64,000 nucleotides of DNA from Candidatus Zixiibacteriota bacterium. Lineage in GTDB: Bacteria > Zixibacteria > MSB-5A5 > UBA10806. Positions within the stretch are counted from its first letter, which is position 1; each line of letters starts with the position of its first letter. Shown here piece after piece: positions 1 to 45,017 of this stretch. The DNA lies in NCBI GenBank assembly GCA_020344055.1, contig CP070813.1, positions 295,551 to 359,550 on the forward strand, given 5' to 3'. A model generated the notes under the pieces. It saw only the letters and a list, made by a program, of their open reading frames with translations, did not search any database and was not told the origin of the DNA. The position numbers and the translations under genes were made by a program.

Positions 1-108
1 GAAAGCGGACGAGGCTTATCAGCCGGCATTTATTTTATAGGTGAAAGCCAAAACCGCAGTTTTAAGAAGGTCTTGTATTTGAAATAGCGAAGGCGCCTGG
101 AGAGTTGT

Positions 109-825
109 ATGAACAATAAAATTATCGGTATTGCCCTCGTTGGAATATTGCTTTCAGCCGTTCCCGTTTCCGCCCAGGGGCAGGGTGATCTCAATTGTAA
201 TGGTTTTATTGACGTGGCTGATTTAATTACTATCATAAATATTCTTGAATACCCGTGCGAAAGAAACCTCATTGAATGTTGGCGGCGAAGCGGCGATGTC
301 GATGGTGATGGATGGCCGCTGACGATTGGCGATATGTACATAATTCCTTATTTTTTGATCAATGGTTATGGAAACTATCCACCCAATTTTCCGAATCACC
401 CCGAATCCGATACGATTTTAATTGAATCGATCGTTACTGTTCCGGGAGACTCTATATCGTTACCCGTCTGGATAAATACCATTGATACGCTCGTCGCCTT
501 CCAGTTCTGGCTCGAAGTAGATACAGACTATGTAGAATTTGATACCATGATCGTTTATGATTATATACCTGTTAGGCAGTCCAACTGTGGGGGAAATATA
601 TACCTTTATACCCTGTTTGCCGGTTATGACGATCCTATCATTCTCCTGCCGGGGAATTACCATGTTGCGGATATTATAGTTAACATAAAGCTCGAAGATG
701 ACGCACGGGTGACCACATACCTTTCATTCTCCTCCGATCCGCCGCGGATATTGTATTCCGGGTTTGCCAGTTATTCCTTTTTCCGGCCGGTCATGATCGA
801 CGCCGAAATACAGATCGTGCCTTAA
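109..825 (+). CDS. Secreted protein with an N-terminal dockerin-like double repeat and a C-terminal cohesin-like beta-sandwich module
   Basis: Signal peptide MNNKIIGIALVGILLSAVPVSAQG. Two EF-hand-like repeats follow (DLNCNGFIDVADLITIINIL and GDVDGDGWPLTIGDMYIIPYF). The rest (VTVPGDSISLPVWINTIDTLVAFQFWLEVDTDYVEF...ADIIVNIKLEDD...YLSFSS) follows the cohesin pattern. RBS ggaga upstream; TAA stop. Confidence 0.6.
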   Translation: MNNKIIGIALVGILLSAVPVSAQGQGDLNCNGFIDVADLITIINILEYPCERNLIECWRRSGDVDGDGWPLTIGDMYIIPYFLINGYGNYPPNFPNHPESDTILIESIVTVPGDSISLPVWINTIDTLVAFQFWLEVDTDYVEFDTMIVYDYIPVRQSNCGGNIYLYTLFAGYDDPIILLPGNYHVADIIVNIKLEDDARVTTYLSFSSDPPRILYSGFASYSFFRPVMIDAEIQIVP

Positions 826-863
826 TTCCTATGGTATTACTTTCAAAAAGCCTATCGTCGTAT

Positions 864-1916
864 TTAGCTTACGAGAGTTCCGGTATTGTCGTATAAAAAT
901 ACCCTGTCTGCCGAAAAGCTGATAGAGATATTATCGCCGATGGAGTAGTTACCCTCGCCCTGAACCCTGATTTTCTCGCCCTTTTCGAGCTCCACAAAAA
1001 GAAGAACCGATCGCCCCAGGTTCTCAAGAGATACAATTTTCCCGCCTATATCGCCGCTATCGACGATCTCTACATCGTCCGGCCGGATGCCGAGGGTAAT
1101 ATTTTGCGGTTTGGCCGGTTGCGGAGATCTTTCAAGGCGGACACGAGTACCATGTTCGCTGATAAAATTATTGCCCGATAATTCCCCTTTTAGAAGGTTC
1201 ATGGCCGGGAAACCGAGAAATCCCGCCGTAAACAGGTCGGGCGGTCTTTCGAAAAGATCTCTGGGAGAGCCCGTTGAAATAATCCTGCCCTCCTTCATTA
1301 TATATATGATATCCGCCAGGCTCATGGCCTCCACCTGGTCGTGCGTGACGTAAATCGATGTCCCCTTTACTCTTCGGTGAAGCGTCAGGATCTCGCCCCG
1401 CATTTTCATGCGAAGCTCGGCGTCCAGGTTGGAAAGCGGCTCGTCGAAGAGATACAGCTTCGGTTTCCTGACGATGGCTCGCCCCAGTGCCACCCTCTGG
1501 CGCTGCCCGCCGGAGAGCTCCCTCGGTTTTCGGTCTAATAGCTCCTTCAGTTCCAGAAGATCCGCCGCCCATTTAATGAACTGCTTTCTTTCCGCTTTGG
1601 GAATTTTCCTCGATTTCAGCCCGAATTCGAGATTTTCGACTACAGTCATGTGCGGATAAAGGGCATAATTCTGAAAAACCATGGCCACATCCCGTTTTTT
1701 CGGCTCCCAGCCGGTAATATCGGCGCCATCGATAAAGATTTTCCCTTCGGTGGGCCTCTCCAATCCCGAAATCAGCCTCAAAAGTGTCGATTTTCCGCAT
1801 CCCGAGGGCCCCAGAAGAACGGCGAATCGCCCCTCCTCCACAAACATATTAAGATCGTCGACCCCGATAGCGCCGTTCGGGTATAATTTTTTCAGATTCT
1901 CGGTCGTCAGTTTCAT
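864..1916 (-). CDS. ABC transporter ATP-binding protein, MalK/UgpC family (sugar/glycerol-3-phosphate importer ATPase with C-terminal TOBE domain)
   Basis: Walker A GPSGCGKST, ABC signature LSGGQRQRVALGRA, Walker B LYLFDEPLSNLD, and a C-terminal transport-associated OB domain. Start placed at MKLTTENLKKLY; the ORF extends to 1952. Confidence 0.85.
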   Translation of the reverse strand: MKLTTENLKKLYPNGAIGVDDLNMFVEEGRFAVLLGPSGCGKSTLLRLISGLERPTEGKIFIDGADITGWEPKKRDVAMVFQNYALYPHMTVVENLEFGLKSRKIPKAERKQFIKWAADLLELKELLDRKPRELSGGQRQRVALGRAIVRKPKLYLFDEPLSNLDAELRMKMRGEILTLHRRVKGTSIYVTHDQVEAMSLADIIYIMKEGRIISTGSPRDLFERPPDLFTAGFLGFPAMNLLKGELSGNNFISEHGTRVRLERSPQPAKPQNITLGIRPDDVEIVDSGDIGGKIVSLENLGRSVLLFVELEKGEKIRVQGEGNYSIGDNISISFSADRVFLYDNTGTLVS

Positions 1917-2334
1917 CGGGTATATATACAATATGGGGGAACCCCTTTTCAAATATTTTAGAGACCGGGAACTTAGAATACCGGGTAATAGTTAAAGTGG
2001 CTGAGTTGGCTTTGCCGTGTAAGCAATACAACTCATCTTTCTTCTCTCTCTCTCCTGAGGAATATCAGGAATAAACCCTGCCGGACCCGTAAAAGGGTTC
2101 GGCTTCGTTTATTTTTGGCCCCACGTCTTCTAACCTAACATATTACAATTAAACAAATTATAAAATTTATCCCCTTTTTGGGGAATGAAATTAGAGTTAA
2201 CTTGTAATCTTTATAGGGGAGAGGAAGCTCGTAGGCAAGGGAAGGAATTGACATCCGGCGCAAGCCTGATGAGGAGTAGTTTACCCCCGAATTCGTTCCC
2301 GGTCGCTATCCGGGATTCGGAAAGGGATTATGCC

Positions 2335-2910
2335 ATGCAAGTTTCTTCGCAAATATCGGGCCGCAACATCGCCAGATTCGAGAGAGTCGCTCTCGCCCAT
2401 TCCGGTTTTATGCTGAATCTGGCCCGGAAATTGACCGGGGATAGATCTCACGCCGACGATCTTTATCAGGATACCTATTTCAAGGCCTTCAGGTCTTTTG
2501 ACAGCTTTAACGGTGAGTCAAAATGCCGGGCCTGGTTAAAAAAGATCATGATCAACACCTTTATCAATATGTATAACAGAAAGCAAAAGGTGATATTCTG
2601 CTATCAGGACGATGACTCTTTCAATCAGTTTCAGGCGGCGCCCTCCGGACGGCAACCGGATTGCGAAAAAGTCGATCACGATTCGCTTCTGAGAGAATTC
2701 GTTTCCGATGAGGTCAAAAGATCATTGATGCTTCTGCCGGAATCCTACAGAACGGTCGTTATTATGTACGATATGCTGGGATTGACATATAAAGAGGTGG
2801 CGCGGAAGGTGCAGGCACCCATCGGCACAGTCAAATCAAGGCTTTTCCGGGGAAGGACCGCCCTCAAGGAAAACCTGCAGCATTACTACCTCAAAACCAA
2901 CGGGAAATAG
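2335..2910 (+). CDS. RNA polymerase sigma-70 factor, ECF subfamily
   Basis: Region 2 (DLYQDTYFKAFRSFDSF) and region 4 (LPESYRTVVIMYDMLGLTYKEVARKVQAPIGTVKSRLFRGR) motifs. The ORF is open from 2185; the ATG at 2335 gives a typical ~190 aa ECF sigma. Confidence 0.8.
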   Translation: MQVSSQISGRNIARFERVALAHSGFMLNLARKLTGDRSHADDLYQDTYFKAFRSFDSFNGESKCRAWLKKIMINTFINMYNRKQKVIFCYQDDDSFNQFQAAPSGRQPDCEKVDHDSLLREFVSDEVKRSLMLLPESYRTVVIMYDMLGLTYKEVARKVQAPIGTVKSRLFRGRTALKENLQHYYLKTNGK

Positions 2911-3060
2911 GTCTGATTCCATCCTTAATTATAAATTTTCATTTAAACTCGATCTAACGCCGTAAACGGTTAGCTTAATGTTTTTTTGCGAAAATTTATA
3001 TTGACATATCTCCGGCCGGTCTTTAAAAAATATATGTTCACGATTAAATAAGGAGGGAAT

Positions 3061-3480
3061 ATGAACTGGAAAAGGCTTTTGTTGGCGGCTCTAGTAGCTT
3101 TTATCTTCTTACAACTATCGGATTTTCTCGTCCACTGGGTCATCCTTAAATGCGTATACGAAGACTTAATGGCCCGGGGGATTTTCAGGAGCGCCGGCGT
3201 AATATGCGGGTATATATGGGTGATGATAATTATGACCGCGCTTTTCTCGTTTTTCTTCACCTATATTTTCGCAAAAGGCTATGAGGGTAAAGGGATTCTC
3301 GAAGGCGTTCGTTACGGAATCGTCATTGGATTCTTCTGGATATTCGTAAATGCCTACAACGTTTTCGCGGTCATAGATATCCCCTATGGTCTGGTATGGT
3401 CCTGGATACTCGCCGGTTTTATTCAGACAATAATTGCGGGAATTCTGCTGGCCCTTATCTATAAACCGAAGAAGCCGTAG
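3061..3480 (+). CDS. Small polytopic membrane protein (4 predicted TM helices); possible anti-sigma partner of the upstream ECF sigma
   Basis: RBS aaggaggg 6 nt before the ATG; four long hydrophobic segments; sits immediately downstream of the ECF sigma gene. Confidence 0.45.
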   Translation: MNWKRLLLAALVAFIFLQLSDFLVHWVILKCVYEDLMARGIFRSAGVICGYIWVMIIMTALFSFFFTYIFAKGYEGKGILEGVRYGIVIGFFWIFVNAYNVFAVIDIPYGLVWSWILAGFIQTIIAGILLALIYKPKKP

Positions 3481-3485
3481 AAAGC

Positions 3486-5309
3486 CTATTTCATAAAGAT
3501 CATGCTTCTGGTTTTTCCGGACCGGGTGTCGGATCTCAGACGGTAGTAATAGACGCCCGACGATACATATTTGGCGTAGTCGCTTCTCCCGTTCCAGACT
3601 ATTTCGCGCCGGTTCTCGTCGCTTATCACAAACGTTTTTACGATTTTTCCCTTTATGTCGAAGATTTCGAGGTAAAGCGGAAAAGTCATGTTTGTGACCG
3701 CAATCGGAATGCTGGTCGAGGCGTTGAAGGGATTGGGATAATTCCGTCCTACCATAAGGCCTTTCGGGGCCCCGGCTATCTCCCTGATTCCTCTCATGGT
3801 CGATTGATACAGAGCCGGCGCCGACTCCTGCCCCGCGAGGTCCACGGCCTTAACGCCGATTATGAAATCATCGAAAAGGAAATTTCCGATTTCAAAACGG
3901 TTATCATACAGAATCGAATCCCTTCCGTTAAAGTCGACTACGTAATGGCTGATATCGGGTTCGCGATTATCCATCCAGGTTATGATGTTATCTTCCCGGT
4001 GGTACCGGAAACCGCGAGGGATCAGGGGAGGAGAATCGTATATCGAATAGTAAACCTCCTCGTCTCCGAAAAGATGGGGATTTTCCCTGTTTGTTATATA
4101 GACCAGATGGAGATTTCCATATGAATCGGATGCGATAACCGGTCTCATATTGAAATAATCGCCCGAATTTGTGATCCGAAACGCCCCGGATAAAACGCCC
4201 GTGTTCAGATTGAACCTCTGGTGATAAAGTTGCGTAGTGGGGGAGTTATTTGGCGATTCATACACAAATTCGACGAAATCTCCGTTAATCGTGACGCAGG
4301 GATGACCGCTGGTGTTATCCCTGTTGGATAAAATCATCGGTTCGCTCCAGGATCCGGACCTGTTGGACAAAAATGCGGCCTTGGAATCCGTATCTCTAAT
4401 CTCGAAAGCGACGAAGATTAAATCGGTGCCTCCCTCCAGGGTCGAAACCCCGATATAAGGGAAAAGACAGCTTCTGGTCTCGTTGGGAGTGAGATCTTCA
4501 ATATCCAGAATCTGCGCGGTTCTTATATTCAATGTTAACAGGAAAATATGTCCCACCGGAAATTCGTCGGTTATCACGCGACAGGCCAGATAAACCTTAT
4601 TGTCGCTTCCCGCGCTTGCCGAAAGATGAACGCCCTTGTATGCCAGACCGGTTTCCGGCAAAGTAATCGGCAGCTCCTCCGTGGCAGGTACGCCGCTGTC
4701 ATATATCCTGAAATATACCGGCAGGCTTGCGGGCAGCTCGGTGTTGACATAGGGCCAGAACGTTATCGCCCTGTTTTCGTATACCGCTATGGTCGTCTGC
4801 CAGCCGGTGGATGAAAAGGTCAGGTAATTGCCGCCGGCGGTGGAGACCAGGTCCGATTCAATCCGTCTTGAGGGATGATCGTCAATCCAGGAACCGTATA
4901 ATTCCCCCCCGAACGATTTTTCCTCGACATAAACCGAGAAAAGTTTCCCGTTTGATTGCGGGTATATTGAAGGATGCCCGAACTTTACTACCGAATCTAT
5001 GGTTGAAAGTTCATAATCGGAGGCGTCCCATTTCATCCATGTGGGATCGGGATCCTTTCCTCTGTAATAAATCCTCAATGGATATCCATGCCGCCTGTCC
5101 TCCCAGACGACGTGCACGCGGTTATTTTTATCAACCGAGATAGACCAGGGACAGTCGGCTCCCCGGCTGGCCTGTTTCCCCGATGTCTCCACATTTACAC
5201 GAACATCGCCTTTCCATTCCGAACGGGCGGATTTCGACGCAAGCAATATCAGGCAAAACACCAGCAATGAGAGTAACAGCACGAATTTCCTGAAATTCAG
5301 ATTTTTCAT
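3486..5309 (-). CDS. Secreted protein with a T9SS C-terminal sorting domain; sialidase/BNR-like beta-propeller of unknown function
   Basis: Signal peptide MKNLNFRKFVLLLSLLVFCLILLASKSA. C-terminus GRNYPNPFNASTSIPIAV...GVYYYRLRSDTRSGKTRSMIFMK matches the Por_Secre_tail pattern. The ORF is open to 5369. Confidence 0.6.
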   Translation of the reverse strand: MKNLNFRKFVLLLSLLVFCLILLASKSARSEWKGDVRVNVETSGKQASRGADCPWSISVDKNNRVHVVWEDRRHGYPLRIYYRGKDPDPTWMKWDASDYELSTIDSVVKFGHPSIYPQSNGKLFSVYVEEKSFGGELYGSWIDDHPSRRIESDLVSTAGGNYLTFSSTGWQTTIAVYENRAITFWPYVNTELPASLPVYFRIYDSGVPATEELPITLPETGLAYKGVHLSASAGSDNKVYLACRVITDEFPVGHIFLLTLNIRTAQILDIEDLTPNETRSCLFPYIGVSTLEGGTDLIFVAFEIRDTDSKAAFLSNRSGSWSEPMILSNRDNTSGHPCVTINGDFVEFVYESPNNSPTTQLYHQRFNLNTGVLSGAFRITNSGDYFNMRPVIASDSYGNLHLVYITNRENPHLFGDEEVYYSIYDSPPLIPRGFRYHREDNIITWMDNREPDISHYVVDFNGRDSILYDNRFEIGNFLFDDFIIGVKAVDLAGQESAPALYQSTMRGIREIAGAPKGLMVGRNYPNPFNASTSIPIAVTNMTFPLYLEIFDIKGKIVKTFVISDENRREIVWNGRSDYAKYVSSGVYYYRLRSDTRSGKTRSMIFMK

Positions 5310-5597
5310 CCTCGGCCTCCGCATGCAAATCGGCGATAGTGATTTTTCTTTGACGCCGGGGTATTTCAAAAGGAATCCTGTTCATTTCTTGCGTTACAGC
5401 GTGTAACCGAGTCCTGAATTCGGCCTTGAACCGGGTTGAAAAGAGAAACAACTATTTATTTTTGAAACATCAGGCCCCGGGTCGGTAGAGAAAGAATGGT
5501 ATATCGGCAGCGGGTCTTAAAAATAAGGATTGTGAATTGATAATTATGTTGTATATTGCCGTTGAAGGGATAGAACAAAATTAAAGCGGAGGAGAGC

Positions 5598-8489
5598 ATG
5601 AGGATTCTCACAATCGTTGCGCTGGCATTTTTTCTCGCGGGTACGGCCGTTTCGGGAATGGTAGACCCGGAACTTGAAGCGAGGCTGGAAAATGCCGCCC
5701 CCGATCAGATGTTTGAGACTCTGATCTTTATGAAGGACCAGATCGATCTCGGGGAATTGAAACGGGATCTCCATTTCATAAATGCGACCCGGGCGGAACG
5801 CCACAGACGGGTAATAACGGAGCTGCAGCGTATAGCCACCGAATCCCAGCCCGATATCCTGGCATACTTAACCGATCGAAAGTACACAAGTGCGGTCGGA
5901 GAATTCAGAGGGTTCTGGATATGCAATATGATAGTCGCGGAATTGACGGCCTCCGAGATCTATGCCGTCGCCGCCCGCGATGACGTTGACAAAGTCCACA
6001 GCGATTTCAAGGGAGAATTGATCGAGCCTGTGAAGGTCGGAGGGGCCGATCCTCCGGTCATAAACAGTGTGGAGATCGGCGTCAGGGCCATCAAGGCCGA
6101 CAGTATGTGGGCGCTGGGGTACACCGGCCAGGGGCGGCTGGTCTGCAATATCGATACCGGCGTTGACGGCAACCATATCGCCTTGAGTCAGAGCTGGAGG
6201 GGCGCCAACGGTTATCCCCCGGCGGAGAGCTGGTATGATTCCGCCAATCCCAGCAATACTTTTCCGCATGACGAATACGGTCACGGTACGCATACCATGG
6301 GGACCATATGCGGCAGAAGCGCCAGCGGAACCGATACGGTGGGAGTGGCCATTGACGCCCAGTGGATCGCCTCTCGCGCCGTCGATGTTTCCGGCGGGAA
6401 TATTGCGGCCGCGTTTCAATGGGCCGCCGACCCGGACGGTAATCCCAACACCGTTCATGACGTCCCGGACGCTATCTCGAACTCCTGGGGCTCCATAGGA
6501 AGCTGTCCTCCCAGCTATTACTCGTTGATCGATAACTGCGAGGCCGCGGGGGCGGCGGTGGTGTTCGCCGCCGGGAACGAAGGACCGGGGGCGCAGACGT
6601 TAAGAATCCCCGCCAACAGAATAACCACGCCGTACAACTGCTTCTCGGTGGGGGCGGTAAACGGCGCCAACAGCAGTTACCCCATTGCGTATTTCTCATC
6701 CCGCGGGCCCTCCCAGTGCGACGGCCAAACCATTAAACCGGAAATCGTGGCGCCGGGACTCAACGTGAGATCCTCCACTCCCGGCAACGCCTACTCTTAT
6801 ATGAGCGGAACCTCCATGGCCTGCCCGCACGTGGCCGGCGCCATCGCCCTGTTGCGCCAGGTAAATCCCAACGCCACCGTCGATACCATAAAATGGGCGC
6901 TCATGCAGTCCGCCGCCGACCTCGGAAATCCCGGCGAAGACAATACCTATGGATGGGGAATCATAAACGTCCGCGCCGCCATGGATCTATTGCCCCCCGC
7001 GAACGAACCCTATCTCTTTGTCAGCGCAGCCTACGTGGTCGAACCCAACAACAATTATCCCGATCCGGGCGAAACTATCGACCTTTATATAAGACTCCAG
7101 AATACGGGGATCAGCGTCGATGACGTCGCCGCAGTGATTAGCACCAATGATGCCTATACCACCATAACGTCCGATTCGGTCTTCTACGGCACCGTGGCCG
7201 GAAATGATACATCCGCTACATCCGATCCCTACGTAATGTCTTTTTCAGAGGACACGCCCGTGGGTCATAATGTCGTCTTTGATTTACACATCACCGGGGA
7301 CGGCGGCTATAGCGTTACCAGGAATGTAACGCTTACAATCGGCATGCTGGCCGATCCCGATATAGCCGACCACGATATAGGCAGCGCCCGTTTCACCATC
7401 TCGAATTTCGGCCAGTACGGTCTGGCACCGACCAGCATAAATACTATCTGGAACGGTGTGGGATACAAGATGTCGCCTTACGGTCCCAACTATCTATTCG
7501 AGGGCGCGCTGTTTATCGGCGATGGCCCCACCCGCGTTTCCAACGGCGCCCGCGATGAAAATCAGAATATGGGCGATGATTTTAACGCCGTGACGGATAT
7601 CGTACTCCATGAACCCGGACCTCTCGCCGACCAGGAATATCATACCTCTTTCAACGATCAGAACGCCGCCGAGCCTCTCGGCGTGCTCGTCTCCCAGAAG
7701 TCCTTCGCCTTTTCAACCGCGCCCGATGACGAGTATATCATTACCGAATATACCATCACGAACGCCGGCTTCGACCCGCTGACCGGGGTGCTGGTAGCCC
7801 ACTTTGAAGATTGGGATATTCCGTGGAACACAGCCGACGATATGGTTAATTTCGATAGAAGCAGAAACCTCGGATACCTGTATAACGGCAGCAACTACCG
7901 GGGGCAACAGGTGCTCTCCGATTCGGGGATCTTTTCCTTCATGGCCCTGGATAATGCCGTTCATGTCTATCCGCCCGCTTTTACGCTGTCCGATAAATGG
8001 AGCTATATGAACGCCGGGATAATCGATACCGCCATCACCTCCATAAGGGATTGCTCCATAATAATAACCACCGGCCCATATGATCTCGCGCCGGGCCAGC
8101 AAGCGGTCGCCGCCTTTTCGATTCTCGGCGGAAACTCTCTCGCGGATCTGCAGGCCAACGCCGATGCCGCTATCGCCCGTTACGGCCTCATGACGTCGAT
8201 TGATGATGATTTCGCCGAACTGCCCGAACAGTTTTCTCTCTCTCAGAACTATCCCAACCCGTTTAACGCCAGAACGACCATAAGCTTCTCCGTACCGGTA
8301 TCGGGGCAGGTTCTAATCGAGGCTTTCGACCTGCTTGGCAGAAAAGTCGAGACAATTCTCGATGCCCATCTTGAAGCCGGGAACCATACCGCTCTATGGG
8401 ACTGTTCGAATCTGTCCTCCGGGATATATTTCTACAGACTTACCGCGGGAGATGAATCCGCGGTCAGGAAAATGACTTTAATAAAATAG
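5598..8489 (+). CDS. Subtilisin-like serine protease (peptidase S8) with an N-terminal propeptide and a T9SS C-terminal sorting domain
   Basis: Catalytic triad motifs NIDTGVDGNH, HGTHTMGTICG, GTSMACPHVAGAIALL. Signal peptide MRILTIVALAFFLAGTAVSG. C-terminal LSQNYPNPFNARTTISFSV...GIYFYRLTAG...KMTLIK. RBS gcggaggag upstream. Confidence 0.92.
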   Translation: MRILTIVALAFFLAGTAVSGMVDPELEARLENAAPDQMFETLIFMKDQIDLGELKRDLHFINATRAERHRRVITELQRIATESQPDILAYLTDRKYTSAVGEFRGFWICNMIVAELTASEIYAVAARDDVDKVHSDFKGELIEPVKVGGADPPVINSVEIGVRAIKADSMWALGYTGQGRLVCNIDTGVDGNHIALSQSWRGANGYPPAESWYDSANPSNTFPHDEYGHGTHTMGTICGRSASGTDTVGVAIDAQWIASRAVDVSGGNIAAAFQWAADPDGNPNTVHDVPDAISNSWGSIGSCPPSYYSLIDNCEAAGAAVVFAAGNEGPGAQTLRIPANRITTPYNCFSVGAVNGANSSYPIAYFSSRGPSQCDGQTIKPEIVAPGLNVRSSTPGNAYSYMSGTSMACPHVAGAIALLRQVNPNATVDTIKWALMQSAADLGNPGEDNTYGWGIINVRAAMDLLPPANEPYLFVSAAYVVEPNNNYPDPGETIDLYIRLQNTGISVDDVAAVISTNDAYTTITSDSVFYGTVAGNDTSATSDPYVMSFSEDTPVGHNVVFDLHITGDGGYSVTRNVTLTIGMLADPDIADHDIGSARFTISNFGQYGLAPTSINTIWNGVGYKMSPYGPNYLFEGALFIGDGPTRVSNGARDENQNMGDDFNAVTDIVLHEPGPLADQEYHTSFNDQNAAEPLGVLVSQKSFAFSTAPDDEYIITEYTITNAGFDPLTGVLVAHFEDWDIPWNTADDMVNFDRSRNLGYLYNGSNYRGQQVLSDSGIFSFMALDNAVHVYPPAFTLSDKWSYMNAGIIDTAITSIRDCSIIITTGPYDLAPGQQAVAAFSILGGNSLADLQANADAAIARYGLMTSIDDDFAELPEQFSLSQNYPNPFNARTTISFSVPVSGQVLIEAFDLLGRKVETILDAHLEAGNHTALWDCSNLSSGIYFYRLTAGDESAVRKMTLIK

Positions 8490-15675: not shown

Positions 15676-17088
15676 GTGCGCAATAGATTAATATTATACG
15701 GCCTTATTATTGCTTGCATGCCCCTGACATTATGGGCTGCGGTCATCCATGTCCCCGGCGATTGCCCCGCCATCCAGGCGGCGGTCGATTCCTGTGCCGG
15801 AGGCGATACGGTCATGGTCGCGCCCGGAGTTTATTCCGGCGATGGCAACCGTGATATATCCATCTTGGCAATATCTATTACCGTCATCAGTTCCGATGGC
15901 CCGCTGTGGACTATTATCGACGGTGGGAACGGCTATAAAGGCTTCAATATAATCGGTGGCGGGGCGCCTGCCACCGTCATAGAGGGCTTTACCATCCAAA
16001 ACGTCTCCTACGGGGTTTACTGCGATTCCGCTTCCGTTGTCATGAATAACGTCATCATCGAGGATTTCCTGTTCCGGGCGATTCACTTCGACGGTTTTTT
16101 ATACGACCCGCCGTTAACAGCCGATATCGATGAGTGTATAATTCACCAGATAGATCCATCATACCAGGGGACCGGCATAGGCTTCCGCGGAGCCCGGAGC
16201 GTTATCGTGTCGGTATACGGATCTATATTCAGCGATTGCCTTTACGGTTTCGAATTTCATACCCTTGAAAATCGGGTTCCCAATTTCGATATCCAAAAAT
16301 GCGTCGTTAGAAACAATCTGCTCGACGGTATCTGGACTCATTCGTGACACCAGCTTTCGCCGGCGGGTTCGGCGCAATACTGTAATTTCTCGGGCAACGA
16401 CAACTACGATATCCGCGCCGAGGCCTGCAGCGATCCCAACACCGTTATCGACGGCCGCTACAACTTCTGGGTCCGGACCGATTCGGCCAGCATAGCCGAT
16501 AGCTGCATCTTCGATCATCTTGACGATCCCGAGGCCCCCACAGTCGATTTCATGCCTTTCCTGTCCCAGCCGGGCGTGGCCGTTATCGCCGGCGTCGTTA
16601 CCGACGATTCGCTGAACCCCATCGACGCGGTGATAGTGCACGTCGAGGGGCAGATATTCTCCGACACCACCGATATAAACGGCGAATATATGATTGCCGG
16701 GCTGCAGATGGGGTATTGCGATATCTCGTTTTCGCATGACCTTTATGATGACTCCGTGGTTACCGGCCTGTTCGCCGTGATACGCGACACCGCCGTTGTC
16801 GACATGGTCCTCTTCGAATGTACCGCGGACAATTACGTGGTCGGCGACGTTAACGAGAGCGGCGACTACAACGGCCTCGATATAATTTACGGGGTCGCCT
16901 ATTTCAAAGGCGGCGACCCCCCGCCATTTCGATGCATCTGCCCGCCCCACGGGGTCTGGCATCTGGCCGGCGACGTCAACGCCAGCTGCAGCTACAACGG
17001 CCTCGATATTACCTACGGGGTCAACTACCTCAAAGGGATAATCCCGGAACGGCTCCCCTGCCCCGACTGCCCGCCGATCGGGTCGTAG
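15676..17088 (+). pseudogene. Secreted right-handed beta-helix (pectate-lyase-like PbH1) + CarboxypepD_reg-like + dockerin-like-tail protein, interrupted by one in-frame TGA (16345-16347)
   Basis: ORFs 15661..16347 and 16552..17088 are in the same frame. Manual translation across the single TGA is continuous and sensible (...DGIWTHS*HQLSPAGSAQYCNFSGNDNYDIRAEACSDPNTVIDGRYNFWVRTDS...). N-terminal AVIHVPGDCPAIQAAVDSCAGGDTVMVAPGVYSG is the classic PbH1 start. C-terminal CTADNYVVGDVNESGDYNGLDIIYGVAYFKGG...CPDCPPIGS tail. Confidence 0.6.
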
Positions 17089-17500: not shown

Positions 17501-18514
17501 GTGAAGAGAGTTATTTCGTATTTTTCCAGATTGATTTTTATAGCTTGCCCCTTACTCGTATTTGTTTTTTCAAATGCCCGCCCAACGGAAAGGATGGTAT
17601 TAGGGGAGTTTTTTAATAATACAGGATGTCCCTACTGTCCTCCGGCAAGCCAGGTTTTGGACCAGTTAGTACAGAATTATGATTCAAACTTCGTTTCAAT
17701 CAGGTATCACATATGGTGGCCATTCTCAAACGATCCTTTCTGGCTGTACAATCAAGGCGAAATCGAGATAAGAAAAATTTACTATAATATTAGTTCCGTG
17801 CCACGTTGTTTTTTTGATGGATCTATTGATGGGGGCGGCGCCTACGGGAATTGGGAGACAATAGTCCAGGATCGAATCTTAGTTGACTCGCCGCTGGACA
17901 TCAGATCTTTTGCAGCTTTTGATAGCGTTTCTTTAACCGGCGATTTAAATATATATGTTATCGCGACGTCTAATATTTCGCAATCCGATTTAAAATTGAG
18001 AATCGCCATTACGGAAAATAACCTGGATTATGGCGGCAGTACATATAATCAGGTTTTCAGGGATATGATTCCGAGTACTGAAGGGATACCTTTTATTATA
18101 ACGGAGGGAGATACGGTAGAGTTTTTTGAGCAATATAGCTGCCCCGCGCCTTTGATTTATCAAAATTGTGAAATTGTCGTTTTTGTACAATCCGATGTTG
18201 ACAGGGAAATACTTCAGTGTAATAGGATAAAAATCCCGGAGGATCTGGTGGCGTGCAACTACGTAGTTGGGGATATCAACGGCAGCGACAGCTATAATGG
18301 TCTCGATGTAACCTACGGCGTGGCCTACCTCAAGGGCGGCAGCCCACCGCCGTTCTCCTGCGAATGTCCCCCGCACGGCGCCTGGTACGTGGCCGGCGAC
18401 GTTAACGCCAGCTGCAATTACAACGGTTTGGATATTACCTACGGCGTTAATTACCTCAAGGGGGTAATACCCATACTGCTCCCCTGCCCCGACTGCCCGC
18501 CGTCAGGGGAGTAA
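17501..18514 (+). CDS. Secreted thioredoxin/glutaredoxin-like (CPYC motif) protein with a dockerin-like Cys-containing C-terminal tail
   Basis: GTG start with GGAGG 8 nt upstream; signal peptide. VLGEFFNNTGCPYCPPASQVLDQLVQNY has a thioredoxin-fold beta-alpha layout with a CxxC. C-terminal CNYVVGDINGSDSYNGLDVTYGVAYLKGG...CECPP...GDVNASCNYNGLDITYGVNYLKG...PCPDCPPSGE (18254-18511). Confidence 0.6.
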   Translation: MKRVISYFSRLIFIACPLLVFVFSNARPTERMVLGEFFNNTGCPYCPPASQVLDQLVQNYDSNFVSIRYHIWWPFSNDPFWLYNQGEIEIRKIYYNISSVPRCFFDGSIDGGGAYGNWETIVQDRILVDSPLDIRSFAAFDSVSLTGDLNIYVIATSNISQSDLKLRIAITENNLDYGGSTYNQVFRDMIPSTEGIPFIITEGDTVEFFEQYSCPAPLIYQNCEIVVFVQSDVDREILQCNRIKIPEDLVACNYVVGDINGSDSYNGLDVTYGVAYLKGGSPPPFSCECPPHGAWYVAGDVNASCNYNGLDITYGVNYLKGVIPILLPCPDCPPSGE

Positions 18515-19006: not shown

Positions 19007-21427
19007 ATGATGAGGATTTTAGTTTCCGGTTTTTCATTATTTTTCTTAATGATATCGTTACCTACATCCATCAGCAATACGCAGTCCACACTTGACGAAG
19101 ATCCGCAAGAGCACCAGGCAATGACAAATCTATTTTCTTTACCATTTTACTTTACAGAAAATCTTGGACAATGGGGAGAAAAAACGCTTTTCAAAACCGA
19201 GACCGTTGGAGCATCTTTCTATTTTTGTAAAGACGAAGTGGCATATCTATTTGTAAGGAAAACGGACGAATTAATGGATGAGGATTCTTCCATCCGCAAA
19301 ATGATGGGAATGGATGATAAATTTTATAGGCCGCCGTATAAGAAAGAAGCCGTTCTCGTGAAAGTTCAGTTTTTGAATGCCAATCCCAATCCCGAAGTCA
19401 TTGGTATTGATCGTTTGTCTCACAATAATAATTACTTTTATGGCAACGATCCTTCATTGTGGCAAACGAATGCACGTAATTATTCGGCAATTGCATACAA
19501 GGATATATACGCTGGAATCGATCTAAAATATCGCGCCAATGGCAGATCGATGAAGTATGATTTTATTGTCAATCCCGGTGCTGATTATTCGCAAATTCGG
19601 CTTCGCTTTGACGGTATAGAGGATTTAAGTGTCACAGCCACAGGCGATTTGCTGATAGAAACGTCACTTAACCCAGTTTACGAAAAGGCTCCTTCCATTT
19701 ATCAGGAAATCAAGGGAGAAAAACGGGAAATATCAGGCCGATATAATGTAACGGAGCCGGGAATCCTTAGTTTTGCTTTGGAAGAAGAATTTAATCCTCA
19801 TTATCCATTAATTATTGATCCAGAACTACTCTTCAGCACATATCTTGGAGGATCCGATGCAGATGAGATGTTCGAAATAGCTCTCGATACAGATAACGAT
19901 GTCTATGTTTGTGGCATTAGCGATTCCTATGATTTTCCGCTCCTCAATCCCTACGATAGCACAGTTAACGGCAATGACGCGGTAGTTTCAAAATTCGCAT
20001 CGTCAGGGGAAACGCTATTATATAGCACTTTCATAGGCGGTGGGCAATCCGACGTAGCTTATGATATAACGGTTGACCTTAACGGTAATGCGTATGTTAC
20101 CGGTATAGCTTATTCGTCCAATTTTCCGGTTATAAATGGTTATGATGAGATTTTCGATGGTGGCGCCGATGCATTCGTACTTAAATTATCAAGAGAAGGC
20201 GATTCTCTAGAGTATAGTACATTTCTGGGAGGAGGTGGCGGAGAGGTCGGTCGTGGTATCTGCCTAGATTATGAAAATAACGCATACATTACAGGCTACA
20301 CGAACTCTTCGGATTTCCCCATCGTTAATGCATATGATGAATACCTGGGAGGGATTGACGATGTTTTTATAACAAAATTATCATCGTTCGGGAATAGCCT
20401 TATATATAGCACTTACCTTGGTGGATCATCGGATGAACAGGCCCGCGGTATCGATGTTGATTCCGAAGGAAACGCATTTGTAACTGGATATACATCCTCT
20501 TCAGATTTTCCTGTGGTTAACGCATATGATGATAGCTATAACGGAAATATCGACGTATTTGTAAGTGGATTATGGCAGACGGGCGATTCACTCATATATA
20601 GTACTTATATAGGTGGAAGTGACGAAGATAGGGGCGCCGGAGTGGTTGTTGATATAAACGGTAATACGTATATAACCGGAACTACGCTCTCTTCGGATTT
20701 TCCAACTATACAAGCTTTGGACAGTAGCTACAATGGCGATCTGGACGGTTTTGTGTGCAAAATGCCACCTATTGGCAATTCTATAACATATAGTTCTTAT
20801 TTTGGTGGATCTGGAGATGATGGAGGTACGGATATTTGCGTAGATATATGTGAAAATGTATATATTACCGGAGGAACGTTCTCGCCTGATTTTCCGACAT
20901 TTAATGCATATGATTCCACCTACAATAATTGGCATGATGTATTCGTTATCAAACTATTCTCGACAGGAAACATCATTATATATAGCACTCTTTTAGGCGG
21001 AGGCTTTAGAGAGATCGCATATGGTATCAGCATCGATTCGGCAGGAAGCGCATATATTACGGGATATACCATGTCTTCAGATTTTCCGCTCGTCAATCCC
21101 TGTTTTGGAAATTTCGCCGGTTCATTTGATGCGTTTGTGGCCAAATTTGGGCCAAGTTTGGATACGGTTTGCATTTATGTAATTGGCGATGTTAATGCCA
21201 GCGGTGATTACAATTCTCTCGATATATCATTTGGAGTAACATATTTCAAGGGCGGCGAATTTCCGATTTGCGAACCTTGTTGGCTATGTAGTGATTGGTA
21301 CTATTGCGGTGATGTCAACGGTAGCTGTAATTATAATGGGCTGGATATTACGTATGGTGTCAGGTATCTTAAAGATGAACTACCAGAACTAATCCCTTGT
21401 CCCGACTGCCAACTAACGATGCAGTAG
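19007..21427 (+). CDS. Secreted SBBP-type beta-propeller repeat protein with a dockerin-like Cys-containing C-terminal tail
   Basis: Signal peptide MMRILVSGFSLFFLMISLPTS. Repeated units YSTFLGG...D.g.GI.vD..GNAYvTG.T.SSDFP..NAYD (x8-9) follow the SBBP pattern. C-terminal CIYVIGDVNASGDYNSLDISFGVTYFKGG...CGDVNGSCNYNGLDITYGVRYLK...PCPDCQLTMQ (21170-21424). By eye this gene is lower in GC than its neighbours. Confidence 0.7.
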   Translation: MMRILVSGFSLFFLMISLPTSISNTQSTLDEDPQEHQAMTNLFSLPFYFTENLGQWGEKTLFKTETVGASFYFCKDEVAYLFVRKTDELMDEDSSIRKMMGMDDKFYRPPYKKEAVLVKVQFLNANPNPEVIGIDRLSHNNNYFYGNDPSLWQTNARNYSAIAYKDIYAGIDLKYRANGRSMKYDFIVNPGADYSQIRLRFDGIEDLSVTATGDLLIETSLNPVYEKAPSIYQEIKGEKREISGRYNVTEPGILSFALEEEFNPHYPLIIDPELLFSTYLGGSDADEMFEIALDTDNDVYVCGISDSYDFPLLNPYDSTVNGNDAVVSKFASSGETLLYSTFIGGGQSDVAYDITVDLNGNAYVTGIAYSSNFPVINGYDEIFDGGADAFVLKLSREGDSLEYSTFLGGGGGEVGRGICLDYENNAYITGYTNSSDFPIVNAYDEYLGGIDDVFITKLSSFGNSLIYSTYLGGSSDEQARGIDVDSEGNAFVTGYTSSSDFPVVNAYDDSYNGNIDVFVSGLWQTGDSLIYSTYIGGSDEDRGAGVVVDINGNTYITGTTLSSDFPTIQALDSSYNGDLDGFVCKMPPIGNSITYSSYFGGSGDDGGTDICVDICENVYITGGTFSPDFPTFNAYDSTYNNWHDVFVIKLFSTGNIIIYSTLLGGGFREIAYGISIDSAGSAYITGYTMSSDFPLVNPCFGNFAGSFDAFVAKFGPSLDTVCIYVIGDVNASGDYNSLDISFGVTYFKGGEFPICEPCWLCSDWYYCGDVNGSCNYNGLDITYGVRYLKDELPELIPCPDCQLTMQ

Positions 21428-41974: not shown

Positions 41975-43396
41975 ATGAAGAGGTTTGGTATTACGATTAT
42001 GTTTATTTTTTCGGCGGTATCATATACCGGGGCGCAGGATACGCTCTGGACCGGCCATTATGGCCTTATTGACACCACTGAATTGGGCTATTGCGGGGAT
42101 ATTACATCTGATGGAGGGTTTATCGTGGGAGGCGAGTCGAGCAAATTTCTTAACGGGGATATGTGGCTGGTTCGTTGCGATGCAAACGGCGATACTCTAT
42201 GGACTCGTAATTACGGCGCCGCGAGGTGGCAAATGGCCTATTCCGTTATTCAGACGTCAGATGAAGGCTTTATCGCCTGCGGCGAATATAGCGTGGCCGT
42301 GGGTGATTATGATATGTACGTGGTTCGAGTCGACCCCGCGGGCGATACCCTGTGGACTCGCCTGTTCGGGACCGTGGATCAGAATGATTATGGAAGAGAA
42401 ATTATTCAGACCTCCGATGGAGGTTTCCTGGCGCTGGGTCAAGGATATGGTACCAGCGGCTCCAGCGACCTCTATATGGCCAAAATAGATGAATCCGGAA
42501 ATCTGACCTGGAGCAAAACATACGGTTATAGCGGCGGTAGCGAATACGGCTATGGAGCGGTGCAGTTGCCTGACGACGGATATGCGATTGCCGGAAGCTA
42601 TGCCTATTTGTCAACCTCGGATCTCTGGCTTTTGAGAACCGATTCCAACGGGGACACTCTGTGGACCGAGAGATTTGATTTTCATGGTGATGTAGATCGA
42701 GGGGATGATATCGAGATAGCCGACGACGGTGGATTTGTAATTGCCGGGAGGACGAAAAATGCCGGAAACATGCGCCTTTTAACCATGAAAACCGATTCGC
42801 TCGGAAATATGCTCTGGTGGCGCGAATATGGTAGCTCCAGTTCCGATTTCGCCGAATCGATCGATAAAACCTCGGATGGCGGCTTTGTTATCTGCGGCGG
42901 AGCTAACGCTTATCCCTTTGATTTCTTTGTTGTTCGTATAAGCGCCATCGGTGACTCCCTTTGGGCCGGTATATATGATTATGATGGAATACCAGGAGAT
43001 TCCGATGATTCCTTCGAGGTAAGAGTCCATCCAAATGGAGATATAATGGTGTTCGGCTACGCCGACGTCAAAACCGGCACCGGCGCCGACAACGACTTCT
43101 GGGTTGTTAAAATACATGATGGCGCCCTTCAGCAACCGGGTTGCGAGTACGCTGTGGGCGACGCCAACAACAGCGGCAGCCTTAACGGCCTGGATGTCAC
43201 CTATGGCGTGGCCTTTTTCAAGGGAGGCCCCATGCCTCCGTACGAGTGCGAATGCACGCCGGGGAACACCTGGTTTGTGGCCGGCGACGTTAACGCCTCC
43301 TGCTCCTATAACGGCCTTGATATAACATATCTGGTGAATTACTTTAAAGGCGGATCGGATGTCGAACCGTGCGCCGACTGTCCGCCGGCCGGTTAA
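41975..43396 (+). CDS. Secreted beta-propeller-like tandem-repeat protein with a dockerin-like Cys-containing C-terminal tail (paralog of 14079 and 43415)
   Basis: Signal peptide MKRFGITIMFIFSAVSYTGAQ. Repeats WTR.YG...TSDGGF...G...DMWLVR.D.NGDTLW. Tail CEYAVGDANNSGSLNGLDVTYGVAFFKGG..CECTP...GDVNASCSYNGLDITYLVNYFKGG..PCADCPPAG (43142-43393). Confidence 0.75.
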   Translation: MKRFGITIMFIFSAVSYTGAQDTLWTGHYGLIDTTELGYCGDITSDGGFIVGGESSKFLNGDMWLVRCDANGDTLWTRNYGAARWQMAYSVIQTSDEGFIACGEYSVAVGDYDMYVVRVDPAGDTLWTRLFGTVDQNDYGREIIQTSDGGFLALGQGYGTSGSSDLYMAKIDESGNLTWSKTYGYSGGSEYGYGAVQLPDDGYAIAGSYAYLSTSDLWLLRTDSNGDTLWTERFDFHGDVDRGDDIEIADDGGFVIAGRTKNAGNMRLLTMKTDSLGNMLWWREYGSSSSDFAESIDKTSDGGFVICGGANAYPFDFFVVRISAIGDSLWAGIYDYDGIPGDSDDSFEVRVHPNGDIMVFGYADVKTGTGADNDFWVVKIHDGALQQPGCEYAVGDANNSGSLNGLDVTYGVAFFKGGPMPPYECECTPGNTWFVAGDVNASCSYNGLDITYLVNYFKGGSDVEPCADCPPAG

Positions 43397-44875: not shown

Positions 44876-45017
44876 AACCTTGACAACCTTTTAGATATCA
44901 GTATCTTAAATATATCATCGCGCGCTGTCATCTTTGAAAAATTATTATGTCAATATCGGGTGGGGGATTATTAAGATTCATAGGAAAATAAGTGTTTTAA
45001 AGGGTCGGAGGTGTGTG

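Follow-up and report, generated by a model that had tools for sequence, protein, structure and literature searches.

The window analyzed here, 64,000 nucleotides of a Candidatus Zixiibacteriota contig (CP070813.1), opens on the end of one gene and continues with an intact open reading frame on the forward strand (109..825, ATG start, 238 codons before the stop), as had been described earlier. This is a real gene under selection, and its Sec-exported product has four parts (Table 1): behind the signal peptide come a dockerin of two repeats, a conserved linker of 16 residues and, up to the last residue, a type-I-like cohesin. The stop codon of the preceding gene lies 21 nt upstream and the gap holds no promoter-like site, so the two genes, called A and B below, are likely to be co-transcribed; a scan for promoters and terminators near the open reading frame found no signal over shuffled background. 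On the other side, 38 nt separate the stop codon from a convergent ABC gene. An NCBIfam search with the protein gave 0 matches.

Table 1. Features of gene B and its upstream neighbor, in window positions
Feature	Position	Strand	Basis or remark
3' end of upstream tandem paralogue (gene A): last 28 residues of T9SS C-terminal sorting domain (...SAGIYFIGESQNRSFKKVLYLK)	1..87	+	stop TAG at 85-87
Shine-Dalgarno-like GGAGAG (GGAG-type RBS)	99..104	+	4 nt 5' of ATG
Sec signal peptide, residues 1-22	109..174	+	inspection and AF2; predicted SPase I site between VSA and Q23
Dockerin, residues 26-85	184..363	+	sequence and profile matches, conservation, AF2
Conserved structured linker, residues 86-101 (..PP..F..HPxxD)	364..411	+	conservation, AF2
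Type-I-like cohesin beta-sandwich, residues 102-238	412..822	+	Pfam on relatives, AF2, Foldseek
Stop codon TAA, right after last cohesin strand	823..825	+	relatives have T9SS CTD at this point, window protein does not

By inspection, the signal peptide reads MNNK, then a hydrophobic helix, then VSA before Q23, a residue at least 90% conserved across the family. The AF2 model places a helix at residues 3-16, with a mean pLDDT of 61 over residues 11-20 and values below 50 at residues 18-22.

Dockerins are recognized by two tandem repeats of about 22 residues, each a calcium-binding loop (D-x-[DN]-x-[DN]-G...D) that leads into a helix, and residues 26-85 have this type I build. Loop 1 (D27-x-N29-x-N31-G-x-x-D35-x-x-D38) takes up the 12 residues D27..D38 and precedes helix 36-47, and loop 2 (D63-x-D65-x-D67-G-x-P-x-T-x-x-D75) takes up the 13 residues D63..D75 and precedes helix 73-85. 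The calcium-loop geometry of these repeats, which an earlier note on this DNA had singled out for checking, is intact in both loops, and each ligand position is either invariant or conserved in 90% or more of 43 sequences. In the Pfam search that the same note called for, the Dockerin_1 model (PF00404) matched the single sequence weakly and below its cutoff (E 0.011; 16.3 bits versus 22.9), and the cohesin model (PF00963) missed this protein but matched 18 of 24 family members (best E 3.8e-5), with a precomputed match for one relative, P0187. Significant similarity to known dockerins comes from the PDB entry 5m2o_B, which was found at E 1.1e-4 by the single sequence and at E 5e-8 by a profile of 24 family members, the latter also finding 5m2s_B at E 4.6e-6. 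Both entries, the best sequence matches of the dockerin, are group 1 dockerins of R. flavefaciens, and like them the window dockerin has a cysteine in the fourth loop position (GD-NC-G), asymmetric repeats with a long segment between them, and a second calcium site one residue longer than canonical, with its acid at n+12 as in RfDoc1a/b (PMC5429695). Unlike the group 1 dockerins, however, the dockerin studied here keeps the canonical n, n+2 and n+4 acids in loop 2, stands at the N terminus, and has two extra conserved cysteines, C50 and C57, both in the inter-repeat segment. Because the repeats are asymmetric, it probably has a single binding mode.

The C-terminal half had been described as cohesin-like, and its predicted fold is that of a cohesin. 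Cohesins are nine-stranded flattened beta-sandwiches (jelly rolls) of about 140 residues, and residues 102-238 take this form in the predicted structure, where P238, the protein terminus, is the end of the last strand. With AF2 model 1 (pLDDT 78, pTM 0.72), the first 43 Foldseek matches in the PDB were cohesins; with model 2 (pLDDT 90.3, pTM 0.80), cohesins made up 50 of the 50 matches listed, the best being 2vn5_C (E 1.9e-10, TMt 0.77) and 1g1k_A (E 7.8e-10, TMt 0.78). Among the matches are the noncellulosomal cohesins of Archaeoglobus fulgidus (2xdh) and C. perfringens (2jh2), examples of the fold outside cellulosomes, although these are distant in sequence, come from other hosts and contexts, and rank below the clostridial type I cohesins. 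The most conserved cohesin motif, LYSGFAxxxFFxPV (215-228), was the pattern used in the genome scan reported below. The arrangement first proposed for this protein, an N-terminal dockerin followed by a cohesin, is thus borne out by the 5m2o_B profile match on one side and the Foldseek cohesins on the other.

Neither a T9SS C-terminal sorting domain (CTD) nor a Cys-rich tail is present in the protein, just as had been noted from the sequence alone. The type A sorting domain (PF18962) is a folded C-terminal domain of about 80 to 100 residues that ends in a ...K-x-x-L-L-K-like strand. It is carried by 13 of 23 first-round homologues and by the upstream gene, whereas the window protein ends at its cohesin. 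What does not hold is the idea that its module order is peculiar. Dockerin-then-cohesin is the norm in a family of T9SS cargo proteins of about 330 residues (SP-Doc-Coh-CTD) that comprises roughly 45 sequence clusters; beyond the first-round homologues, this architecture was seen in about 30 further 50%-identity clusters. A profile search returned 44 relatives, of which those named are all Candidatus Zixiibacteriota, and the genome scan with the cohesin motif placed the family in only three species-level genomes. The CTD-bearing homologues, labeled "T9SS type A sorting domain-containing protein" at NCBI (e.g., P0011 on CP070742.1), are 40 to 57% identical to the window protein over all 238 residues and have gene position, cysteines, calcium loops and linker in common with it, but they continue into a sorting domain of about 95 residues. 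The family is uncharacterized, and its dockerin and cohesin are unannotated. The neighborhoods of distant relatives (L008 and L009) offered no synteny and no functional hint.

A gene that lacks a domain of its relatives might be a truncated, functionless copy on its way to decay. At least 14 CTD-less proteins of 225 to 238 residues exist, however, all ending at the same residue and diverged down to 48% identity, and the open reading frame is intact behind a good ribosome binding site. Purifying selection acts on the short form, with a dN/dS of 0.28 against the L002 copy and of about 0.11 against that of L005, the latter a rough value since synonymous sites are near saturation (pS 0.73). A decaying remnant is therefore extremely unlikely, and a pseudogene reading was rejected because of the dN/dS values and the conserved length. 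In a neighbor-joining tree the CTD-less proteins form a single clade, consistent with one loss event at the boundary between cohesin and CTD. A one-base deletion was considered as the event behind the stop codon (CCG GTA ACA in L003 versus CCG TAA in L005) and set aside, the codon context being absent from other CTD-bearing copies. On all of this evidence, the protein is very probably a dockerin joined to a cohesin, a CTD-less paralogue that selection has kept.

The gene does not stand alone. It is gene B, the downstream member of a tandem Doc-Coh pair conserved in Zixibacteria-like genomes, and gene A keeps the CTD. The shared gene order (SecDF, A, B, ABC on the opposite strand, sigma-70, a 139-residue protein, a T9SS protein of about 610 residues, an S8 peptidase) was seen with its A-B pair at L001, L002, L003/L004, L005 and L006, and the window's open reading frames follow the matching order. 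The window holds only the last codons of its gene A, and the gene A copies of L002 and L005, two loci in which A has the CTD and B lacks it, served as proxies; the ending encoded by the window's first bases recurs in gene A of L002, gene A of L001 and CTD-bearing family members. Identity between A and B is 42 to 45% in the dockerin, 53 to 76% in the cohesin and 69 to 98% in the CTD. The two proteins thus differ mainly in the dockerin, a pattern that fits different docking targets. A strict heterodimer in which A binds B was also considered and is weakened by two loci: the two tandem copies at L006 both carry dockerins of the B type, and the cohesin of gene A at L003 resembles that of B. The data therefore do not require such a heterodimer.

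A Sec signal without a CTD, probable co-transcription with a CTD-bearing paralogue, and purifying selection after the loss of the CTD would together suit a periplasmic factor, one that caps the cohesin or dockerin of the CTD-bearing paralogues before export, as an assembly chaperone or a guard against polymerization, and is released at the translocon. Yet orthologous gene B keeps its CTD in other lineages, so that its ancestral role was extracellular, and no precedent for such a factor was found; we consider it very unlikely.

How the two domains sit together bears on what the protein could bind. Within the linker, P98 and D101 are invariant and conservation is at least 90% at P92 and H97; pLDDT is 90 to 93 over residues 81-100, with all five AF2 models at 82.6 or higher. 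Across 84 Doc-Coh modules, the four cysteines occur as CCCC in 50, C-C- in 11, ---- in 11 and -C-C in 2, so that C30 goes with C57 and C50 with C160 in occurrence, a co-occurrence that is uncorrected for phylogeny and that a few evolutionary events could produce. C160 is placed in the beta5-beta6 turn of the cohesin, and the unit is probably stapled by two disulfides, one inside the dockerin (C30-C57) and one joining dockerin to cohesin (C50-C160). Because the linker is conserved and confidently modeled and the dockerin-cohesin cysteine pair co-occurs, dockerin and cohesin look like one rigid unit, as the AF2 scores also suggest. The pair is always found as a unit, even where it is part of a larger protein (for example, P0038, P0042, P0045 and P0051).

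One possibility is that this unit is self-contained, with the dockerin docked or stapled in cis on its own cohesin to make a single globular domain that bridges nothing, for example, a calcium-dependent head for binding a ligand or surface, and with the CTD deciding only whether it is displayed. The canonical dockerin-binding face of a cohesin is 8-3-6-5, and if the protein's own dockerin occupied that face, the unit could bridge nothing. The pTM of 0.80, the high-confidence linker with its invariant motif, the joint gain and loss of C50 and C160 in the 84 modules, and the constancy of the pair would all suit such a module. Against it, the residues of calcium loops and helices that typify functional dockerins are conserved, and the tandem paralogues have divergent dockerins with homogenized cohesins, as expected from changing partners. 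We find a purely self-contained module rather doubtful.

The earlier note had instead proposed a soluble adaptor that bridges dockerin-tailed enzymes and T9SS-anchored scaffolds, and the partners it assumed are indeed encoded in the window. The proteins at 55447 and 57661 combine one or more cohesins with a dockerin and a T9SS CTD, and six CTD-less proteins each have a Cys-rich C-terminal tail, dockerin-like and duplicated, that aligns with the type I dockerin 4dh2_B across both repeats (E 0.02). The tailed proteins include an S41 peptidase, SBBP/beta-propeller proteins and an Omp28-like protein. As a free adaptor, the protein would capture these tails with its cohesin, and its dockerin would plug into the cohesins encoded at 55447 and 57661. 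Monovalent adaptor scaffoldins likewise consist of one cohesin and one dockerin, an example being R. flavefaciens ScaC, which has a group 1 dockerin (PMC5429695), and like them the window protein is small, noncatalytic and secreted. In other respects it differs: the window protein is dockerin-first, reversed with respect to ScaC, its host is a diderm with a T9SS rather than a Gram-positive bacterium, and a conserved rigid linker with a probable interdomain disulfide (C50-C160) takes the place of the flexible, poorly conserved linker that leaves the modules of cellulosomal adaptors independent. Furthermore, the gene is unlinked to any gene for a tailed protein, its conserved neighbor being a Doc-Coh paralogue, and the dockerins at 55447 and 57661 belong to its own dockerin family (E 1.7e-13 and 1.4e-9), so a hierarchy of scaffold and adaptor is not evident. 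No outer membrane export signal is evident in the adaptor or in the tailed proteins, and in a diderm a Sec signal without a CTD does not obviously yield a protein that is soluble outside the cell. The observation behind the earlier note is confirmed and its interpretation partly supported; an adaptor role is possible, but in the free form proposed we judge it unlikely.

We tentatively favor a different arrangement, a plausible reading if somewhat short of probable: the CTD-bearing paralogues (gene A and the two proteins at 55447 and 57661) would be the anchored part of a cohesin-dockerin assembly at the cell surface, to which the window protein would belong as a subunit with no anchor of its own. 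Its dockerin would plug into the cohesin of an anchored partner, its own cohesin would be offered to a partner's dockerin, or both. A precedent for multimerization through modules of one's own kind is Amy4 of Ruminococcus bromii, which likewise carries cohesin and dockerin on one polypeptide and whose cohesin binds the protein's own kind of dockerin (PMC4611034), although in Amy4, a large GH13 amylase, the dockerin is C-terminal and self-binding is demonstrated, while the window protein is known from sequence and models.

Since the protein has no CTD of its own, the proposed subunit would need a partner or some other route across the outer membrane, or would act in the periplasm. The T9SS moves folded cargo and requires a folded CTD (PMC9251779). 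A CTD-bearing partner might be bound in the periplasm and the two might then pass through the T9SS together; alternatives to joint passage are another export route and action in the periplasm. In its most specific form, which we regard as quite unlikely, the Doc-Coh unit and its CTD-bearing tandem paralogue would assemble in the periplasm, possibly locked by cysteines, and the CTD-less protein would travel as a passenger through the type IX translocon, with one sorting domain exporting two proteins. A review of the T9SS cites no example of such "piggyback" co-transport (PMC9251779). If true, this would be the first case of T9SS hitchhiking, and passenger export would account as well for the way in which the window's six CTD-less, Cys-tailed proteins get to the surface.

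Cohesin and dockerin modules have been linked to a T9SS-type CTD elsewhere in the FCB group, in Candidatus Stygibacter (Cloacimonadota), for which a CTD-anchored, multi-cohesin, scaffoldin-like protein of 3,755 residues was proposed along with dockerin-tailed enzymes (PMC8542988). In contrast to that giant, the Zixibacteria units are single Doc-Coh modules encoded by tandem genes, one of them CTD-less. A literature search found nothing on Zixibacteria dockerins, Zixibacteria type IX secretion, or cohesins and dockerins of Latescibacteria. To our knowledge, cohesin-dockerin assembly is understood almost only from Gram-positive cellulosome producers. In the uncultured phylum Zixibacteria, a fixed dockerin-then-cohesin unit is a common and unannotated T9SS cargo, and one lineage retains a CTD-less copy under selection. 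If this short form gets to the surface, it would point to partner-dependent export through the T9SS, and if it does not, to a role of cohesin-dockerin pairs in the periplasm. In both cases, the family provides compact, possibly disulfide-locked cohesin-dockerin pairs from diderm bacteria, and it suggests a possible display route for peptidases and beta-propeller proteins with dockerin-like tails.

The window gene opens with an ATG and runs for 238 codons, and the reading frame and the two loop stretches quoted in the earlier note were present as described. The first 22 residues of the product are laid out n/h/c like a Sec signal peptide, and cleavage is likely between VSA and Q; AF2 placed a helix at residues 3 to 16 and modeled residues 18 to 22 with low confidence. 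The residue right after the predicted signal-peptidase site, Q23 (window 175-177), is Gln in at least 90% of the family (alignments A1/A3). A "Q-rule," N-terminal pyroglutamate, is described for secreted proteins of Bacteroidetes; family Q23 matches it and would extend the rule to Zixibacteria. At the other end, the chain stops at P238, the end of the last cohesin strand, and the TAA lies only 38 nt from a convergent ABC-ATPase gene. Neither a T9SS C-terminal sorting domain (CTD) nor a Cys-rich tail was found in the protein, as the earlier note had also seen.

Features in the window and tandem pairs compared in relatives
Feature	Position	Strand	Basis or remark
Shine-Dalgarno-like GGAGAG	99-104	+	ahead of window ORF ATG
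Window gene (gene B)	109-825	+	dockerin-cohesin, CTD-less
T9SS-CTD protein of ~627 aa, unknown fold	3486-5369	-	Pfam
T9SS-CTD S8 subtilase	5598-8489	+	Pfam
IPTL-CTERM protein, 430 aa	14079-15371	+	PF18203, E 4e-5
Six Cys-tailed proteins	16552-17088, 17501-18514, 19007-21427, 41975-43396, 43415-44875, 44934-47825	+ (all)	
T9SS-CTD LVIVD-repeat beta-propeller protein	50204-52318	-	Pfam
Tandem ~730-aa T9SS-CTD proteins	55447-57645 and 57661-59850	+	Pfam
A/B pair, L001	8993-10996		
A/B pair, L003	8986-11014		
A/B pair, L005	3641-5370		
A/B pair, L006	4054-6133		

By the features tested, apart from Pfam's own cohesin threshold, where the protein and most of its relatives differ (below), the protein belongs to the dockerin and cohesin superfamilies. 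Taken alone, it stays below the Pfam Dockerin_1 threshold (E 0.011; 16.3 bits against 22.9). Two solved structures of R. flavefaciens group 1 dockerins, 5m2o_B (E 1.1e-4) and 5m2s_B, align with the single sequence over both repeats. The N-terminal dockerin proposed earlier was borne out by the 24-member family profile, which matched 5m2o_B at E 5e-8, 5m2s_B at 4.6e-6 and further dockerins, and by the Ca-ligand positions D27, N29, D38, D63, D65, D67 and D75, each of which is either invariant or conserved to at least 90% across 43 sequences. Loop 1 (D27-L-N-C-N-G-F-I-D-V-A-D38), with 12 residues, is of the canonical EF-hand type and precedes helix 36-47, and loop 2 (D63-V-D-G-D-G-W-P-L-T-I-G-D75) has 13 residues and leads into helix 73-85. 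With its extra residue and an acid at n+12, loop 2 is reminiscent of RfDoc1a/b, where the second Ca site is atypical and uses n, n+6 and n+12 (PMC5429695). The two repeats are not symmetric, which suggests, by analogy with the same study, a single binding mode.

Residues 100 to 238 have no Pfam match, while 18 of 24 relatives match PF00963 (best E 3.8e-5). A first AF2 model built from 24 sequences (pLDDT 78, pTM 0.72) had 43 consecutive PDB matches to cohesins, led by 1g1k_A (E 5.7e-10, TMt 0.76). All 50 PDB matches listed for a second model from 43 sequences (pLDDT 90.3, pTM 0.80; five models all at least 82.6) were cohesins, led by 2vn5_C (E 1.9e-10, TMt 0.77), with 1g1k_A at TMt 0.78. A non-cohesin fold, named beforehand as the outcome that would overturn the assignment, is therefore not what is predicted. 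Clostridial type I cohesins come nearest among the matches listed, ahead of types II and III.

The 16 residues between the modules include conserved P92, H97, P98 and D101 and are modeled at pLDDT 90 to 93. A pTM of 0.80 despite a partly ill-modeled signal peptide means that the predicted placement of dockerin against cohesin is a confident one. There are exactly four cysteines in the protein, and across 84 dockerin-cohesin modules aligned to the family profile (raw counts, kinship ignored) positions 30/50/57/160 read CCCC in 50, C-C- in 11, ---- in 11 and -C-C in 2, with ten others. By this co-occurrence C30 in Ca loop 1 goes with C57 in the inter-repeat segment, and C50, also in that segment, with C160 in the cohesin beta5-beta6 turn. 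We infer two disulfides, one tying dockerin to cohesin; a bond in trans is a possible alternative to one within a single chain. On the models and the cysteine pattern the unit is probably rigid and stapled. A self-contained module whose dockerin is docked in cis, with a nonbridging role, is an unlikely reading; it agrees with the pTM, the linker and the pairing of cysteines, and less well with Ca loops that are conserved and dockerins that diverge.

Close relatives number 23, or 44 with a profile search, and every named one belongs to a Candidatus Zixiibacteriota MAG. In 13 of the first 23, which are ~330 aa long, the cohesin is directly followed by a T9SS type A sorting domain (PF18962). When 1.84 billion cluster representatives were searched, 300 matched at E <= 1e-3, of which 75 reached E <= 1e-10; among the 150 matches listed, which we scanned with our own dockerin, cohesin and CTD profiles, at least about 30 further 50%-identity clusters have the build signal peptide, dockerin, cohesin, CTD (320 to 350 aa), and larger proteins embedding the pair are also present. 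Dockerin-then-cohesin is thus the rule in an unannotated family of T9SS cargo, and the "reversed" order does not set the window gene apart. Five larger relatives (P0038, P0042, P0045, P0048 and P0051; 500 to 630 aa) have a 170- to 300-aa extension ahead of the pair and end in ...GWPNCEE-like motifs where the CTD otherwise stands; these ends may be another C-terminal signal.

In an NJ tree the CTD-less proteins group into a single clade that lies within the CTD-bearing ones. With the profile search included, at least 14 such proteins are known (225 to 238 aa), and all share the end ...I-x-I-x-P. The dN/dS of the window gene is 0.28 in a codon comparison with L002, its closest relative (87% identical), and about 0.11 against the MAG locus L005, a rough value since synonymous sites are near saturation. 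The clade, the common end point and dN/dS together mark the short form as an old state under selection, as opposed to a recent truncation or an assembly artifact; a decaying remnant, contradicted by the dN/dS and the conserved end, is highly improbable.

Five places share one arrangement of genes, which runs SecDF (-), gene A, gene B, ABC ATPase (-), sigma-70, 139-aa membrane protein, ~610-aa T9SS protein (-) and CTD-bearing S8 peptidase: L001 (a complete Zixibacteria chromosome), L002, L003/L004 (two metagenome contigs), and L005 and L006 (two further MAGs). Window 1 to 8489 agrees with this order, the window gene being gene B; bases 1 to 87 encode the T9SS CTD end ...SAGIYFIGESQNRSFKKVLYLK and a stop, and gene A of L002 ends in nearly the same way. 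In L005, gene A (331 aa, with CTD) is followed 23 nt on by gene B (236 aa, without CTD), and in L001, L003 and L006 both copies carry the CTD. L006 (CAZKYQ010000057.1) is labeled "uncultured Ignavibacteria bacterium" yet carries the full Zixibacteria synteny block, which may reflect misbinning or mislabeling. Within genomes A/B identity climbs from 5' to 3' (dockerin 42 to 45%, cohesin 53 to 76%, CTD 69 to 98%), with the exception of L006, where dockerin identity is 68% and both copies have the B-type dockerin. The first loop has 13 residues in dockerins of the A type (NG-Y-x-W-E-I-x-D) and is canonical in those of the B type. The gradient would fit gene conversion of the 3' parts with selection keeping two dockerin types apart, an outcome to be expected if the two had different docking targets.

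The window also holds candidate partners. The tandem ~730-aa proteins each comprise an N-terminal cohesin-like region, an Ig domain, a cohesin (matching Pfam Cohesin at cut-off in the second), a dockerin, a ~120-aa domain and a CTD; the family profile places this dockerin, downstream of the cohesin, in the same family as that of the window gene (E 1.7e-13 and 1.4e-9), with a 13-residue first loop and no cysteines. The Cys-tails invoked in the earlier note exist on six CTD-less proteins (CarboxypepD_reg, Omp28-like, DUF7948+SBBP, two beta-propellers and an S41 peptidase), all closed by the duplicated motif GDVNxSxxYNGLDIxYGVxYxKG...PCPDCPP; no T9SS CTD was found in any of the six. These tails match Dockerin_1 weakly (E 0.0034 to 0.12), and one aligns full-length, over both repeats, to the C. 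thermocellum dockerin 4dh2_B (E 0.02); they may represent a dockerin subtype of their own or else serve in sorting. Every part of the bridge between Cys-tailed proteins and tandem scaffolds proposed in the earlier note is present, but nothing ties the parts to the window gene, and adaptor scaffoldins carry independent modules on a flexible linker, a feature that the window protein, with its apparently rigid linker, lacks. We regard this bridge as doubtful. Of the earlier note, the observation stands and the interpretation holds in part. T9SS substrates are abundant in the window, and IPTL-CTERM is a second C-terminal sorting system there; no T9SS or T2SS core genes were among the 26 window ORFs (a minority) scanned against Pfam.

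The gene directly after the CTD-bearing paralogue encodes a secreted unit that lacks a CTD and that selection has maintained. The protein would be a nonanchored subunit of a cohesin-dockerin assembly, with its CTD-bearing relatives as the anchored members. A Sec signal by itself takes a protein of a diderm cell to the periplasm, a point of topology that the earlier note missed. T9SS export requires a folded CTD, and the system transports folded proteins (PMC9251779). The short protein could bind a CTD-bearing partner before export and travel with it, leave by a different route, or act in the periplasm. We tentatively rank partner-dependent export first, because the operon-like pairing is conserved and orthologues elsewhere are surface cargo; the T9SS review cited above (PMC9251779) gives no example of such cotransport. 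A periplasmic cap or chaperone seems improbable.

Dockerin and cohesin modules are themselves familiar. The putative working of the window protein may be likened to that of a monovalent adaptor scaffoldin of the ScaC type, or to R. bromii Amy4, where both modules sit on one self-associating protein (PMC4611034); unlike T9SS cargo, defined by the CTD, it has none. For Cloacimonadota, cohesin scaffolds anchored by a T9SS CTD have been proposed (PMC8542988), and our literature search found no paper on dockerins or T9SS in Zixibacteria. A fixed dockerin-then-cohesin unit is a common T9SS cargo in Zixibacteria, and the window copy is its selected, CTD-less form. The question of its export, together with a probable interdomain disulfide, makes this protein a clean experimental target.
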